The notes beneath the pieces are model-generated. The model did not search any database. It saw only the letters and a list, made by a program, of their open reading frames with translations, and had not been told where the DNA came from. From a virus (taxonomy: Duplodnaviria; Caudoviricetes), in the IMG/VR virus record IMGVR_UViG_2636416124_000002, positions 1-64,000 of that record: a stretch of DNA of 64,000 nt. The stretch is one strand, 5' to 3'. Shown piece by piece: positions 3,041-34,977 of this stretch. Position 1 is the stretch's first letter. Every line of letters starts with the position of its first letter. The position numbers and the translations under genes are program-made.

Positions 3041-3727
3041 GTGCCCCAGAATCCCACACCTGCTGCTGCGGGTGACACGAACCCCACGACTCCGATGCCC
3101 GGCGAGGATGCGATCCGGGAGCAGGTGCGCCGACTCCTGGCGGCTGCCGACGGCTTCGGCTTGGACGGCTTGGAGCCGCACGACTACCAGAAGCACGCGA
3201 GCGTCGTGCTCGACATGATCCGCCCGCTGGTCTTCGCGCTCGGCCAGTATCAGGCGCTGGAGCTGGGCACCCCCGAGGGGCGTATCTCCGCGAAGTGCGA
3301 CGACTCCTCGCACCCGGTGTGGCTGCGCGACCTGGACGACATGCGGGGCTGCCCGTGGTGCCGGGTCGCCGAGCTGGAGGCGCAGGCCGAGAAGACCGCC
3401 GCGTTCTGCGCCCAGCGTGCCGAGTACGTGACCAGCATCCTGAACTGCCACCCGGACAACGCGCACGACTACTACCGCTGGCAGGGCCACGCGGAGGCGC
3501 GACGTCAGCTGTCGCAGTCGCTCGGCCTGCCGGTGGGGTGGCCCGCCGAGGACAAGCAGGCCACCACGCCCACCCCGGCGGAGGACCCGCACGACGGGCC
3601 GTTGCATCACTCGTACGCGCTGGGCCGCGACCTCCCCGAGGTGACGCCCGACGAGCAGGCGCGCCGGGACGAGTCCGTCGCGAAGCTGCGGGCGCTGCTC
3701 GCCCGCCAGTCGGGCGGTGCGTCGTGA
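3041..3727 (+). CDS. Hypothetical phage protein (CPWC motif)
   Basis: Long ORF with phage-like codon bias whose stop overlaps the next GTG. Confidence 0.6.
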   Translation: MPQNPTPAAAGDTNPTTPMPGEDAIREQVRRLLAAADGFGLDGLEPHDYQKHASVVLDMIRPLVFALGQYQALELGTPEGRISAKCDDSSHPVWLRDLDDMRGCPWCRVAELEAQAEKTAAFCAQRAEYVTSILNCHPDNAHDYYRWQGHAEARRQLSQSLGLPVGWPAEDKQATTPTPAEDPHDGPLHHSYALGRDLPEVTPDEQARRDESVAKLRALLARQSGGAS

Positions 3728-5895
3728 CTGCCGCCGACATGGAGCGCCTGGACGTCCCGCTGAATGTGCTCCTCGCGCAGGTGGATCAGATCGCCACCGA
3801 GAGGGACGCACAGGCCCGCGCCGAGGCCTACGCCGAGAACCGGCACCTCCTCTACGACGCCGACCCGACCGACACCGCCTTCGCCCTGCTGCCCTGCCCG
3901 CACCCCGAGCTGTGCTCCACCGGTGCGGACTACCCGGGCTTCGACGCCTGGATCACCCAGCAGCAGAACCTCAACACCGCAGCACGGAGGACCCGATGAG
4001 CAGCTACTACGCGGACATCGCTCCGCAGGCCTACGAGATCACGTGGCACGCCGGGCATGTCGAGACGGTCATCGCCCACCAGGTCTCTCACGACTCGCGG
4101 CGCATCCGGGTGTCGGCCCTGCCGGGCGGCGAGTTCGCGACCGAGGCGGACGGACAGCGCATCAAGTTCCACGCCGAGGTCGACGGCCAGTGGACGTTGC
4201 AGCTGTCCGCCATGGAGTCCGACATCCGCACGATCCGCAACATCACGAACGGCGAGCAGCTCCCCGGAGGCAACCGATGAACACCTTCAACCTCTCCTGG
4301 GGCGACCGCCCGATCGTGCTGGAGACCGAGGGTGCCCGCACGTTCCTCCGTCTCGGCGCCAACCTGCGGGTTGATGTGACGGACGCGTCGCTGGACCAGC
4401 TCGACCGGCTGGCCCAGGTGACGGCGGACCTCGCGGACGTCTGGCGGGACCAGATCCGGGCCGCCCGGGTGGCGGACGAGGTCGCCGCCGAGGACGGGTT
4501 CCCGTACCGGCGCAGGCAGGTGGCGGCATGAACGCCACGTTCGTTCACGAGGGCATCGAGTTCGACCTGACCCTCACCTACGCCGACTGCACTGGCGTCG
4601 AGTGGGTGTGGACCGGCGAACAGGTCGACGGCGTACCGCTGATGGCCCAGAAGCGGGCCCCGCACGGCTGCAGGGCACCGTGGAAGCTCACCGACCTGTA
4701 CTGGGAGCTGGGCCCGCTCATCGCGATCCACGACCGGCCGTCGAACACCGACTTCCGGAAGGCGATCGACCCGAACTACGAGGACACGGTGGCCGCCGGG
4801 TACGTCGAGGCGCCAGCCGCGTTCGGCGCCCGCATCGCGACGACACCGGTCCCGTCTCCGGCGGTCCCGCAGTTGACCGCCAACCACCTGCCGCCCAGCC
4901 CGCTGGAGCAGACCGGGTTCCGGCGGTTCATCCGCAGCCTCCAGAAGGGCGGCGCGTGATGGATGAACTGAGGAACGCGCAGGCTCGAATCACCGAGCTG
5001 GAGGCCGAGTTGGAGCGGTACGTGGGTAGGGAGCCGACGGTCCGCGACGAGATGGCCTACCTCCAGCGGTGCCTGAACTCGGTGCTGGAGCGGTGCGACC
5101 AGGCCGCCGCCCAGGCGGTCCGGTGGGAGAACCCGCTGCCGGTCCCGGAGTGGGTGATCGCGGTCCGGGAGGCCGCCTCGGGTGAACGCCCGGACAACCC
5201 GGCCGACAAGCGGCGGCGCATCTACATCGACGGCAACGGCAGCGGGTGGGTCGACCTGTCCGTCGACAACCACGGTCTGCTCTGGCTGCGCCGCATCAGC
5301 AACTCGGACGCTCATGCAACCCCGGGTTCGATCCGCGCCGAGACCGGCGGTCTGTACGAGATCGGCCGGTGCTGGTGACCGCCTACGTCATCACCGCCAC
5401 CGCCATCGGCGTCGTGTTCTGCGCGATGGCGGTGGCCCCCAGCCTCACCCGGAAGGGCAAGTCATGAGCTTCAGCAGCCTCATATCCCGCAGCAAGCCGA
5501 AGCACCGAGCCGCCGACAAGGTGGCCCAGTTGCAGGCCGAGAACAAGGCACTTGTCCGGCAGGCGTTCGGCGCCATGGAGTACATCGGCCAGCTCGAAGT
5601 GGTCAACGGGTGCCTCGCGGACACGGCCCGGAAGCTGACGGAGCAGCGCGATTCCGTATGGGGTGAGCTGGACGACCTGCGGATCGAACTCAGTGCTGCC
5701 AGAACGCGTCTCGCCCCGATGCTCGCGGCGGAGGCCAACGCGAACGCGATCACCGTGCCCGCCCCGATCCGGGACAGCAGCCGGTTCGAGGACCAGACCA
5801 CCGAGACGATCCGCGTGCGCCCCCTGTGGGAGGCGATCGGGCCCGTGGTCCGCACCGAGGGCAGTGCTGATCCGGTGCACCTGCCCACCGCATGA
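3724..5895 (+). CDS. Run of coupled small early genes: 3724-3999, 3996-4280, 4277-4531, 4528-4959, 4959-5378, 5375-5467, 5464-5895 (all hypothetical)
   Basis: Each start overlaps the previous stop (ATGA/GTGA/TGATG) and has a purine-rich RBS. Confidence 0.7.
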
Positions 5896-9628: not shown

Positions 9629-10329
9629 GCTGGCACACAGGCCGTTTGGCTGGCTTTGACCTGGAGACAACGAGCCCCGACCCGCTGACCGCCCGCATCG
9701 TCACCGCTTGCATTGTCCAACTCGGCGGCCAGCAGCCCACCGTGGCAGCGAACTGGCTGACCGACGTCGACGGCGAAGAGATCCCCGACGGGGCCGCCGC
9801 GGTCCACGGCATCAGCACCGAGAAAGCCCACGCCGAGGGGGTGGACCTGCGGGCCGCCGTCGAGGAGATCCTCGGCGCCCTCACCCAGGCGATCCTCGCC
9901 GGGATCCCGATCGTGGCCATGAACGCGCGCTACGACTTCAGCGTCCTCGACCGGGAAGCCCAGCGGTACGGCTTCCAGCCCCTGCCTGACGCCGTCGTCA
10001 TCGACCCGTTCGTCATCGACAAGCAGGTCGACCGCTACCGCCCGGGGAAGCGCACCCTGACCGCCCTGTGCGACCACTACGACGTCCGCCTCGACGGTGC
10101 GCACAGCGCAGACGCGGACGCGGTCGCCGCCTGCCGGGTCGCATGGCGGCAGGCCACCCGGTACCCGCAGCTCGCCGCCATGACCCTCGACGAGCTGCAC
10201 GCGGCGCAGGTCGGGTGGGCCGCCGAACAGGCCGCCAGCTTGCAGGAGCACTTCCGGAAGACCCGGCCCGACGCTGTCGTCGAAGGCGCATGGCCGCTCA
10301 TCCCCAGGCAGAGGGAGGCAAGCCAGTGA
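9625..10329 (+). CDS. DnaQ-like DEDDh 3'-5' exonuclease
   Basis: GFDLETT (ExoI), AMNARYDF (ExoII), AHSADADA (ExoIII). Confidence 0.9.
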   Translation: MSWHTGRLAGFDLETTSPDPLTARIVTACIVQLGGQQPTVAANWLTDVDGEEIPDGAAAVHGISTEKAHAEGVDLRAAVEEILGALTQAILAGIPIVAMNARYDFSVLDREAQRYGFQPLPDAVVIDPFVIDKQVDRYRPGKRTLTALCDHYDVRLDGAHSADADAVAACRVAWRQATRYPQLAAMTLDELHAAQVGWAAEQAASLQEHFRKTRPDAVVEGAWPLIPRQREASQ

Positions 10330-31742: not shown

Positions 31743-32336
31743 ATGAGCACCCCCTCCGAGCAGGTCCGTAACTTCGCCCAGCAGCAGGCCGACCAGCCCT
31801 TCACCGCCCCGCCCCGCCCCCGCAAGGCGCCGACGAACGGTACCCACCAGGGCGGGGACAACAACTCGAAGACGCGTAACGGCGGAGGGTTCAACCCGAA
31901 GGTCGGCCTGACCCTCAACAAGACCGTCGTCCAGGGTGCTGGCACAGTCGGCGCCACCCCGGGCGCGGGCACCCGCTCCGGAACCGGCGGGAAGGTCCCG
32001 GGTTCCGACTTCATGTCGAACGAGGACATCCGGGCGTTCTGCGAGCACCACCGCAAGCAGTCCCGGAACGGGGCCACCGAACTCGCCCTCGACGCAGACC
32101 ACCTGGAGACAGTCCTCCGCGCGATCCGCGACCCCAACGGCACCATCGGAGGGTCCCGGGCCAGGGCCCGCCGTGTCACCCGGTGGCTGAAGAAGGCTGC
32201 CGCCGCCCAGAAGGCACAGCAGAAGTACTTCGCCGCCCTCTACGCCACGTTCGAGCGGGAGTTCGACTCCAACCTCCGCACCGTCGGCAAGGCTCGCTCC
32301 CAGCAGCGCCCCACCCGCAACTTCAACTGGCAGTAA
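31743..32336 (+). CDS. traA: Plasmid transfer protein TraA-like
   Basis: FMSNEDIRAFCEH...ARARRVTRWLKKAA...YATFEREF. Located immediately upstream of traB, as in pJV1-type plasmids. Confidence 0.6.
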   Translation: MSTPSEQVRNFAQQQADQPFTAPPRPRKAPTNGTHQGGDNNSKTRNGGGFNPKVGLTLNKTVVQGAGTVGATPGAGTRSGTGGKVPGSDFMSNEDIRAFCEHHRKQSRNGATELALDADHLETVLRAIRDPNGTIGGSRARARRVTRWLKKAAAAQKAQQKYFAALYATFEREFDSNLRTVGKARSQQRPTRNFNWQ

Positions 32337-32360: not shown

Positions 32361-34357
32361 GTGGCTGACAGCCCCAAGGCCGACCTGTGGAAGGCCATCA
32401 AGCACCCCCGCATGAGGCCCTGGCTGACAGTCGCCGCCGAGGTCCCCGCCACCTTCGCCTCCCACCACTACTGGGGCGACTCCGTACCCGCAGCGATCGG
32501 CCTCACCGTCGCCGCCGGGGTACTCACCGCCGCAACCTGGTGGGCGGCAGAGGGCACCCGGCCCGGCAGGCGGATCCACGCCACCCTGTCCACCGGCCTC
32601 GGAACCTCCTACCTCGTCGTCGGGACCGTCACCGGCCCGTTCGACCCGGCCATGGCATCCACCCTCGTCATCGGCGGTGCGGTCGCCGCGGGGTCCTGGA
32701 ACATCCGCCAAGCGTTGCGCGTCAACGTCGACCCCCAGAAGACAGGCGGCAACGCCGAGACCGGTGTACTCGTCAAGGCCATCGGTGACGCCAAGGTCGC
32801 CCTCCGAAGCAAGCCGAAGATCGAACCTAACAAGGTCACCGCACCCCTCCAACTCGCCGCCGGACAGGTCACCTCCGACGACCTTGGCAACCGCATCAAG
32901 CACATCGCCGGCGAACTCGGCGTCTCCCCGACCAGCATCCGCGTCATCCCCGACCCCGACGACGCCGCCCGCGCCACCCTCGTCGTCGTCCCCAAGGACG
33001 AACTCAAGCAGCCCACCCCTGGCCCGGCCCGTCCAGCCCGGGTGGCAGCATCACCGAGCCCGTCGTCCCCGGCATCTACGAGGACGGTGAGGAGGCGACG
33101 CTGTGGTTCCCCGCCGGACCCGGCCGGAACGCCACGCACTTCCTCACCGCCGGGATGAACGGCTCCGGGAAGTCCGCCGGCCAGTCCGTTGCCATCACCG
33201 AAGCCCTGACCCGCCGCGACGCCATCGTGTGGGCCGTCGACCCGTCGAAGGGCATGCAGACCTTCGCCCCGTTTCTGCCCCACCTGGACTGGGTCGAGAT
33301 GACCGAGGCCGGCGGCAACGAGATGATCGACGCCCTGTCGCAGGTCATCACTGCCCGCGCCAACCGCCTCGGCCAGCACGGCTACAAGAACTGGACCCCG
33401 GACGCGTTCGACCAACTCGGCATGCCGTACCTGATCGTGTGGATCGAGGAAGCCGCCAAGTTCTTCCGCAACGGCACCGAGATGGAAGGCTTGGTCATGG
33501 AGGCCAGGTCCGCCGGGATCAGCGTCATCATCAGCCTCCAACGCCCGTCCGCCACGTCGATGCCGACCGACGTCCGCGAGCAGCTCGGCGGCGTCCTCTG
33601 CTTCGGCGTCAAGGGCTCCACCACCGCCGACATGGCCCTCCCCGACGACGTCCGCGACGCCGGCGCCCGCCCCGAAGCATGGGAGAACCGCAAGCCCGGC
33701 TACGCCTACCTCGTCGCCCCCGGCGTCGACGAAGACCGCTACGCCACCCCGCTGCGCACCTACCTCATCGACGACGACCAGATCACCGGGGCCCTCGCCA
33801 TCCTGCCCCGCACCCCCATCGACCCCGTCACCGCCGCCGCAGCCGGTGACGCCTACGCCAACCGCACCCAATACGACACCGACAGTCCACTGACCAGCGG
33901 TGACACCGACAGGCAGGAGCCCGTCCTCATGACCAAGGACGACAACGAGCAGGCAGAGAAGGCACTGCTGGAGAAGCAAGTCGACCGCGAGATCGACGCC
34001 ATGGTCGGCGACGACCCCGACGACGACGGACACGTCCCCGATGTCGACGCCGACCAGGAAATCGCCGCGGTGAGCGAGGTGTGGTCGTTCGGCCAGGCCC
34101 AGGCGACCGTGGAGGAGAAAACACCGGAGGCCGGGATGGAAGCCCTGATGGTGATGCTCGACGAGTTCCGGGCCGAGGAGCGGGAGACGATCGGACCGAA
34201 GGACTTCAGCCCCTACGGCAAGGGTTCACGCATCGGAAGGGCCCGTTCCTGGGTGTCAGGGGCCCTCGGAGACCTGTCAGATGCCGGGATTCACCTGTCA
34301 GAAACGGACAAGCCGGGGGTGTACCGGCTGCTGTACCCGGAGCTGGCGGAGGTCTGA
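32361..34357 (+). CDS. traB: TraB, FtsK/SpoIIIE-like conjugative dsDNA translocase (frameshift in C run 33017-33020)
   Basis: N-terminal TM helices, Walker A GMNGSGKS, DPSKG, Walker B IVWIEEA, ARSAGISVIISLQR, and a C-terminal wHTH (RIGRARSWV). Confidence 0.9.
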
Positions 34358-34535
34358 CACCCGGGGGTGTCAGCGCTGACACCCCATCTGACCTGCGGTG
34401 ACACCGTTCTGACAGGGTTCTGACACCCCGAAGGTGTCAGGACCGGTGTCAGAAGCCCTCCGGAGGGCCGATCTCTATAGGTCATGCGCGTGCGCGCGCA
34501 TGACCCGCCCCTCCGTGACACCCCAACCTGACACA
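34252..34535. repeat. clt-like locus (TraB recognition repeats)
   Basis: CTGACACC or its complement at 34252, 34354, 34366, 34376, 34420, 34433 and 34445. Variants GTGACACC, CTGACAGG and CTGACACA at 34273, 34294, 34398, 34409, 34515 and 34528. Confidence 0.8.
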
Positions 34536-34547
34536 GGAGACAAACCC

Positions 34548-34977
34548 GTGAAAAGCCCCGAACCGGACGGAGGTCGGGCCAAGGTACTCGCCGCAGCACT
34601 CCGCACCTGGACCACCGTCGACAACGACCCCAACCCCCGTCGCACGCCTCGAAATCCGGTATCCACCCCACTGGGCCTTCACCCACACCAACCCCATCAC
34701 CGCCCGCCAGCAGACCCGGCTCCTCGCCTTCCTCCGCGACGACCTCGCCGAGAACCGGCCCACCCACTCCACCCCCGAACGAGCCGCCGCCGTCATCCAA
34801 GGGCTCCTCGCCGAGCACGCCGCGGCCGGCCGTAGTCGCATCACTACCGCAGACCTTGCGCAGGCTGCGCCGCGCATCGGCCGGTCCCGGGCCTGGATCG
34901 CCGCTCACATCACAGACCTCATCGACGCCGGAGTGCTTCGCGAGACCAGGCGCCCCGACACCTTCCGCATCACCTAG
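34548..34977 (+). CDS. Small protein with TraB-like C-terminal wHTH (frameshift near 34635)
   Basis: AGGAGA RBS. C-terminus APRIGRSRAWIAAHITDLIDAGVLRETRRPDTFRI aligns by eye with the TraB C-terminus. Confidence 0.6.

Follow-up and report, generated by a model that had tools for sequence, protein, structure and literature searches.

A candidate clt of the pWTY27 class at the 3′ end of traB in a Streptomyces phage-plasmid

The repeat array at the end of traB

The 64,000-nt stretch analysed here (the window, with a G+C content of 68.6%) comprises the initial 64 kb of an IMG/VR virus record of 82,122 bp, IMGVR_UViG_2636416124_000002, which is rated complete by CheckV. It carries a conjugation module in which traB, the gene for an FtsK-like transfer protein, is followed by an array of short repeats that begins inside the traB coding sequence and ends at the ribosome-binding site of the next gene, orfX. 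Our analysis makes it very probable that this array is a clt (cis-acting transfer locus), the site at which TraB loads onto DNA.

Thirteen matches to [CG]TGACA[CG] and one conserved variant, CTGACCTG, which we count as a fourteenth copy, lie between positions 34252 and 34535. Eight copies (the variant included) are on the plus strand and six are on the minus strand. The parts of the array are:

34252-34259, 34273-34280 and 34294-34301, minus strand: copies inside the traB coding sequence
34354-34361, plus strand: copy that holds the traB stop codon, TGA, at 34355-34357
34366-34373, 34433-34440 and 34445-34452, minus strand: copies beyond the traB stop codon
34376-34383, 34388-34395 (CTGACCTG), 34398-34405, 34409-34416 and 34420-34427, plus strand: further copies
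34354-34452, both strands: left arm, nine 8-mers in the order + - + + + + + - -
34455-34468: GC-rich perfect palindrome of 14 bp, GCCCTCCGGAGGGC, largely conserved among close relatives
34480-34505: central imperfect palindrome of 26 bp, matching itself on the opposite strand at 92%
34515-34522 and 34528-34535, plus strand: right arm (34515-34535), two direct copies, GTGACACC and CTGACACA

A first-pass annotation of the sequence had reported about 13 (C/G)TGACA(C/G) copies in 34252-34535, and our counts bear this out. Over both strands of the window there are 41 matches to [CG]TGACA[CG], 13 of which fall in 34251-34535, and the densest other 300-bp stretch holds three. The Poisson tail for the cluster is ~5e-22 per 300-bp stretch, and when the window was simulated 200 times with a first-order Markov model the largest cluster never exceeded four copies. 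The core TGACAC is rarer in the window than expected (22 occurrences, against a mean of 32 after shuffling), and 10 of the 22 are within 34253-34534. The perfect 8-mer CTGACACC occurs nine times in the whole 82-kb record; seven of these occurrences belong to the array.

Copies in the left arm are spaced 9-14 bp from centre to centre, or about one helical turn. The face-to-face arrangement noted earlier is present at 34354-34373 as CTGACACC-CGGG-GGTGTCAG, and pairs of copies form perfect palindromes of 18-20 bp. It had also been noted correctly that the array starts in the winged-helix-coding end of traB and takes in the stop codon of the gene. The core of the central palindrome (34483-34502) is a strictly alternating purine-pyrimidine tract of 20 nt, prone to form Z-DNA or a cruciform. 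Among seven relatives there is no variation in the block that runs from TATAGGTCAT through the GC-alternating tract. At the far end, the second copy of the right arm directly adjoins the GGAG ribosome-binding site of orfX (34536-34539).

As a single strand the array folds far better than its shuffles do (-60 kcal/mol, z = -6.7), as would be expected if the region acted at the RNA level, for example by giving the traB transcript a hairpin-rich 3′ end or a terminator, with the repeated word arising as a by-product of the stems. This explanation is very improbable. Most copies are direct repeats, which are unable to pair with one another, and what is conserved is the sequence of the 8-mer, not pairing with compensatory change. 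Three copies lie within coding sequence, 55-105 nt before the traB stop codon. The array has no T-run terminator on the plus strand, the sole terminator-like site in a terminator scan being on the minus strand within traB, and a search of the array region against Rfam gave just one chance-level match (E = 0.93). A scan for sigma-70 promoters found none in 34100-34800.

traB, orfX and their winged helices

The genes that flank the array, and traA upstream of them, are:

31743-32336, plus strand: traA, a small transfer gene upstream of traB (NCBIfam NF041213 plasmid_TraA, 113 bits; cut-off, 80)
32361-33017, plus strand, frame 0: N-terminal part of traB, the membrane and oligomerization region
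33018-34357, plus strand, frame 2: C-terminal part of traB, with FtsK-like motor, acidic linker and winged helix
34548-34977, plus strand: orfX, a small gene with a free-standing paralogue of the TraB winged helix in its C-terminal half

Among annotated sequences, the transfer genes are closest to those of pCQ3 and pCQ4, circular plasmids of 85 kb from Streptomyces sp. W9 and W75. traA is intact, and its product is 57% identical to TraA of pCQ3. The identity of the gene before the array as traB, proposed from the sequence in the first-pass annotation, is confirmed by matches of both of its pieces to NCBIfam NF041214 (plasmid_TraB). The N-terminal part aligns with profile positions 2-213 and is 71% identical to residues 1-229 of pCQ3 TraB (tblastn); the C-terminal part aligns with profile positions 256-638 (482 bits) and is 76% identical to residues 214-675. 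The names traA and traB were assigned from NCBIfam; for the traB pieces, Pfam gave nothing beyond sub-threshold matches to FtsK_SpoIIIE. The Walker A motif is encoded at about 33152 and the winged helix comprises the last ~75 residues.

A DNA alignment with pCQ3 and with two related loci (L008 and L016) locates the split between the two frames of traB to a single missing base near 33017, in a C run at 33008-33022. Programmed frameshifting is rejected as an explanation, because traB is a single unbroken frame in 24 of 25 relatives. The exception, a chromosomal copy in Streptomyces sp. NBC_01590 (L033), has traB frameshifted elsewhere, at ~3339-3341, and an intact array. The homologue of pCQ3 HS084_RS00180 that we call orfX is also spread over two frames in the window, with a deletion of 2 nt near 34632 relative to L008 and L016; it is intact in pCQ3 and in L008, L009, L016, L018, L020, L022 and L025. 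The deletions in traB and orfX could be sequencing or assembly errors, or they could reflect real decay or inactivation.

To the last 90 amino acids of TraB, an AlphaFold2 model built with 26 homologues gives a helix-helix-helix-hairpin topology with a predicted local distance difference test score (pLDDT) of 79. Its top matches in the PDB (Foldseek, VIA-align) are all winged-helix domains with Z scores of 6-7.4, among them PhiH1 repressor-like, Fur, CRP/FNR, GntR, Z-alpha and MCM winged-helix domains. None of the Foldseek matches reached E <= 0.001, FtsK-gamma is absent among the matches listed, and a profile search of the C-terminus against PDB sequences returned no match. The model supports membership of the winged-helix fold class and points to no particular family within it. 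Between the motor and the winged helix is a linker of ~85 residues, 29% of which are Asp or Glu. A model of 400 residues of TraB was poor (pLDDT 62), and this low-confidence result lends weak support to disorder in the linker.

OrfX is homologous to this domain in its C-terminal half. Profile-profile comparison of the two with hhalign gives a probability of 98.4% (E 4e-15), the sole NCBIfam match of OrfX is to positions 562-632 of the TraB profile, and the OrfX and TraB winged helices have in common a recognition helix that starts RIGRSRxW(I/V).

The three inverted copies within the winged-helix coding sequence are 21 bp apart and are translated as V-S-G, L-S-D and L-S-E, each with the rare serine codon TCA. 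This codon accounts for 13 of the 306 serine codons in 18 open reading frames of the window, and four of the 13 are found within the 25 codons of 34226-34298. In seven relatives the three copies are unchanged, while nearby synonymous sites vary. The pCQ3 gene encodes similar residues without TCA and does not have the copies. Codon choice and conservation together indicate that the copies in the coding sequence are selected at the DNA level, so that the putative clt reaches ~100 bp into the sequence for its own predicted binding domain.

The repeated word across traB loci

We compared 26 loci from virus and genome collections with TraB proteins of 58-93% identity, and added pCQ3, pWTY27, pRL1, an S. 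canus plasmid, an Amycolatopsis plasmid, pJV1, pSN22 and the NBC_00104 plasmid. Thirty-one of these loci belong to the CTGACACC class; the three pJV1-type plasmids (pJV1, pSN22 and NBC_00104) are treated separately. All 31 loci have a cluster of the CTGACACC word behind traB, with copies in both orientations (179 plus and 97 minus in total). A consensus built from 259 copies at 28 loci is exactly 8 bp long, C-T-G-A-C-A-C-C, with uninformative flanks. Spacing between neighbours in the same set has modes at 10-13 and 21-22 bp; convergent neighbours are mostly 12-16 bp apart and divergent neighbours 9 or 12 bp. The same word follows traB where TraB identity is as low as 33-39% (pRL1 and the S. 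canus and Amycolatopsis plasmids), and traB of pJV1, pSN22 and NBC_00104 is followed by CCGCACA repeats in one orientation.

The arrays are arranged in a common manner, which we describe schematically for all loci. Direct copies run from the stop codon, which itself lies within a copy in ~24 of the 31 loci, including the window, pCQ3 and pWTY27. They are succeeded by one to three inverted copies (up to six in some loci) and often by one further direct copy. Then comes an alternating purine-pyrimidine tract of 12-20 nt, present in 24 of the 31 loci including the Amycolatopsis plasmid, and two to four direct copies lie directly past this central tract. Seven close relatives differ in the spacers but have identical 8-mers and an identical central block. 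The first-pass annotation had called the mixed polarity of the array notable. This was a fair remark, but the feature is no peculiarity of the window, and its occurrence at all 31 loci makes mixed polarity a conserved rule of the pWTY27-type clt class.

The array is directly adjacent to traB at 30 of the 31 loci. At the remaining locus, L014 (4201-4440), a small extra open reading frame sits between the traB stop codon and the array, and direct abutment is therefore not obligatory. Three other loci (L010, L011 and L019; ~4210-4330 and 5030-5215) have most CTGACACC copies replaced by the variants TAACACC and TCACACC. They contain an 11-bp inverted repeat, GGATTCACACC...GGTGTGAATCC, that recalls the central repeat of pJV1-type clt, and encode an extra small paralogue of the TraB winged helix upstream of orfX.

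Experimental data for an array of this class come from pWTY27, whose transfer needs a TraB-family gene (named traA there) and a 175-bp clt (PMC3583192). The site comprises 16 bp within the gene and 159 bp beyond it, with four TGACACC repeats, CCCGCCC repeats and inverted repeats; the purified TraB homologue produces a specific gel shift of a clt fragment and protects 9797-9849 and 9867-9897 from DNase (PMC3583192). Deletion of 10 bp within the gene or of 129 bp of the clt makes transfer ~1000-fold lower, the deletions overall reduce it 10- to 1000-fold, and the site is needed in cis (PMC3583192). The published coordinates are consistent with the sequence, because 9803 + 16 - 1 equals the annotated gene end, 9818. 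When the footprints are mapped on this sequence, the first covers four direct copies of the word and the second (9867-9897) covers an inverted copy, GGTGTCAC, together with the variant CTGACAG. The pWTY27 protein thus binds the inverted word in vitro. The second footprint can be reinterpreted as an inverted and a variant copy of the word, beyond the ‘DC2’ repeat alone, which implies that the TraB winged helix accepts either orientation. The ‘DC2’ word itself, CCCGCCC, was tried as a common element and rejected, since it occurs once in our array and is not conserved among relatives.

Replication iterons and type Ib/II partition centromeres typically consist of short, phased direct and inverted repeats ~11 bp apart. 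The array has this form, and could be imagined as a binding site for a Rep protein or a ParB/ParR-type protein. Such a role is hardly credible, given that array and traB travel together on unrelated replicons, namely the theta plasmid pWTY27, the linear pRL1, phage-plasmids and chromosomally integrated copies. Moreover, the array is flanked by traB and orfX with no adjoining rep or par gene, and a DnaC-like loader is ~20 kb away. In pWTY27 the iterons are located elsewhere, beside repAB, and it is TraA that footprints the TGACACC repeats (PMC3583192).

Some copies of the word are placed where they might affect gene expression. In ten relatives (L012, L013, L014, L015, L017, L022, L028, L029, L031 and L032; ~2120-2210) a second array of three to six CTGACACC copies, all in the orientation of traB, lies on both sides of the ribosome-binding site and start codon of that gene. 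The window keeps just one upstream copy, CTGACAGC at 32365-32372, which overlaps the GTG start of traB. A composite, CTGACACC-N3-CTGACCTGC-N2-TGACACC, recurs in upstream and downstream arrays. These observations suggest that the upstream array is used for autoregulation or as a second loading site, and that the CTGACACC word also serves in autoregulation. The last copies of the downstream array may also act as an operator of orfX, which follows the array in 13 loci and is absent within 3 kb in the remaining loci.

It is conceivable that the array as a whole is mainly an operator, bound by OrfX, or by the TraB C-terminus as a repressor, so that orfX and the spread genes downstream are controlled. 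Palindromic pairs would then serve as dimer sites, and a function in transfer would be secondary or absent. The abutment of the last copy on the orfX ribosome-binding site, the recognition-helix start common to OrfX and TraB, the direct copies around the traB start in ten relatives and the perfect two-copy palindromes in the window are all in keeping with this proposal. Nevertheless, mixed arrays of the same layout exist at loci that have no orfX within 3 kb, including pWTY27, and the spacing of opposed neighbours varies, unlike that of an operator with fixed dimer sites. An operator would not need as many as thirteen sites in 285 bp, of which three lie 100 bp within the upstream gene, and deletions of the pWTY27 site abolish transfer (PMC3583192). 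We therefore consider a predominantly regulatory function to be rather unlikely; an operator role is more likely an additional function than an alternative to transfer.

Proposed function and comparison with known systems

The array at 34252-34535 is in all likelihood a clt of the pWTY27 class, where TraB would load onto the phage-plasmid. Its word and position match those of the proven pWTY27 clt, the density of copies is far above chance, and the array moves with traB between unrelated backbones. Clt regions contain 8-bp repeats recognized by the cognate TraB, and the 8-bp motif and helical phasing seen here fit such recognition sequences (PMC4447253). In addition, the copies in the coding sequence use a rare codon and are invariant in relatives, inverted copies are bound in pWTY27, and the TraB C-terminus models as a winged helix. 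By analogy, the binding, the footprints and the cis requirement established for pWTY27 should apply to this element too. The clt interpretation of the first-pass annotation is accordingly supported by a characterized relative. Its attribution of TGACACC to pJV1-type clt was mistaken: this is the proven repeat of pWTY27, and the repeat of pJV1, although that plasmid is in the same traA-traB family, is CCGCACA[C/G][C/G] (PMC3583192), as can also be read directly in the pJV1 sequence.

We propose that the 8-bp word CTGACACC is the unit recognized by TraB, and that its 13-14 copies, most of which lie one helical turn from their neighbours, together serve as a landing pad. This pad would begin ~100 bp inside the winged-helix coding sequence, take in the stop codon and end at the ribosome-binding site of the gene that follows. 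The C-terminal winged helices of TraB subunits would each bind a single copy, raising the local concentration of TraB on the element and nucleating assembly of an FtsK-like ring on duplex DNA. Once assembled, the ring would pump duplex DNA into the recipient hypha. The orientation of individual copies may say little about direction, because a long acidic linker, through which orientation would be poorly transmitted, joins the winged helix to the motor. The variable spacing of opposite neighbours is what would be expected of independently tethered domains and not of a rigid dimer. Alternatively, the two orientations may load rings in both directions.

A more elaborate version of this last idea is that the layout is a geometric loading device. 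Through opposed 8-mers, a pair of TraB rings would be loaded head-to-head or back-to-back around the labile, Z-DNA-prone centre for bidirectional pumping, and OrfX would compete for the words and so gate conjugation against the phage cycle. We find this scheme doubtful. If it were true, bidirectional loading would bear on the open question of whether integrated elements mobilize the chromosome in one direction or in two (PMC11571958).

Several points weigh against assigning the array to transfer. The evidence for binding and transfer comes from pWTY27 only and is carried over to the present element by analogy. The mixed orientation of the copies does not fit a simple directional loader of the kind that reads FtsK-orienting polar sequences (KOPS), and the argument from linker flexibility draws on amino acid composition and a low-confidence model. 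If the 1-nt deletion in traB and the 2-nt deletion in orfX are real, the site can only function with TraB provided in trans. Finally, the copies at the orfX ribosome-binding site and the upstream arrays mean that the arrays may partly serve gene regulation and not transfer. This last point does not displace the assignment as a clt, because some loci have arrays of this layout but no orfX, and transfer of pWTY27 depends on its site.

The array is a fresh example of an experimentally known class of clt, and it leaves the known picture of Streptomyces conjugation unchanged. What the comparison adds is the 8-bp consensus, the layout of both orientations around an alternating centre, the rare-codon copies in traB, the reinterpretation of the pWTY27 footprint and the second arrays that lie upstream in relatives. 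In annotation, an array of CTGACACC words behind traB can be taken as a marker of the transfer site throughout a TraB clade that includes phage-plasmids of Streptomyces, integrated elements and small plasmids and extends to Amycolatopsis. The word may also be used to find clt and possible clt-like sites on chromosomes. The footprint and the conserved layout make the loading of an FtsK-like ring on circular or integrated duplex directly testable.

The carrier is a pZL12/pCQ3-like Streptomyces phage-plasmid with a TraB-type conjugation module. Its phage-plasmid nature is confirmed by one further feature of the window:

41669-62971 (41.6 to 63 kb): siphovirus-type structural module, with the portal gene on the minus strand (PHROGs)

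PHROGs matches in this module include portal, major head protein, tape measure protein, Dit, minor tail proteins and tail fibre. The module also has a head-tail connector, and its tape measure protein of 1072 amino acids has a peptidase domain. The well-studied plasmid-phage pZL12 is built along the same general lines, as is the similar pSLE1 (PMC4487206). These two, pCQ3, pCQ4 and the present element are alike in their size of 80-90 kb and in combining siphovirus structural genes with a tra module, and it is this likeness, with the structural genes, that identifies the carrier. To pCQ3 the resemblance extends to TraB's C-terminal part and to an array of the same type, but only traA, traB and orfX have counterparts in the 13-kb pCQ3 tra neighbourhood (L001). 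The rest of that region is without detectable protein similarity to the window, and pCQ3 has none of the three coding-sequence copies.

With pWTY27 the element has in common the word TGACACC (here extended to the 8-mer CTGACACC), an array that starts inside the 3′ end of a TraB-family gene and encloses its stop codon in a copy, a traA-traB pair upstream, and both orientations. The two differ in several respects. Their TraB proteins are just ~34-36% identical, and pWTY27 has four named and ~3 further copies compared with 13-14 in the window. Our array extends ~100 bp into coding sequence by means of rare TCA codons, has a central alternating purine-pyrimidine palindrome of 20 nt, and is followed by a gene for a paralogue of the TraB winged helix. 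pWTY27 is a 14-kb theta plasmid, whereas the present carrier is an 82-kb phage-plasmid.

pJV1 and pSN22 share the traA-traB family, a clt directly after traB, and short phased repeats arranged as two blocks with an inverted repeat between them. Their clt consists of nine direct CCGCACA[C/G][C/G] repeats flanking imperfect inverted repeats (PMC3583192), and so differs from ours in its word and in having essentially one orientation. The TraB recognition helices differ between the two classes as well. Before the conserved Arg, Asp or Glu in one class stands against Ser or Ala in the other; after WVS, Lys or Arg stands against Gly or Ala. Both differences are class-specific in a set of nine sequences that are not independent.

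In the accounts of pSVH1 given by two sources, TraB is described as an FtsK-like hexameric pump whose C-terminal winged helix reads 8-bp motifs at the traB 3′ end through helix 3 (PMC4447253, PMC3583192). The mechanistic model is the same as the one proposed here. The clt motif of pSVH1 is reportedly GACCCGGA, which differs from the word of the window, and a literature search on GACCCGGA returned unrelated papers only.

More distant parallels are FtsK with KOPS and SpoIIIE with the SpoIIIE recognition sequences (SRS), in which, as proposed for TraB, an FtsK-family motor reads an 8-bp word through its C-terminal winged-helix (gamma-like) domain. KOPS and SRS are polarized and scattered over the chromosome, whereas the words of the window are clustered in 285 bp and point in both directions, as they do at all 31 loci. 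A further difference is that in TraB the winged helix is parted from the motor by the acidic linker of ~85 residues.

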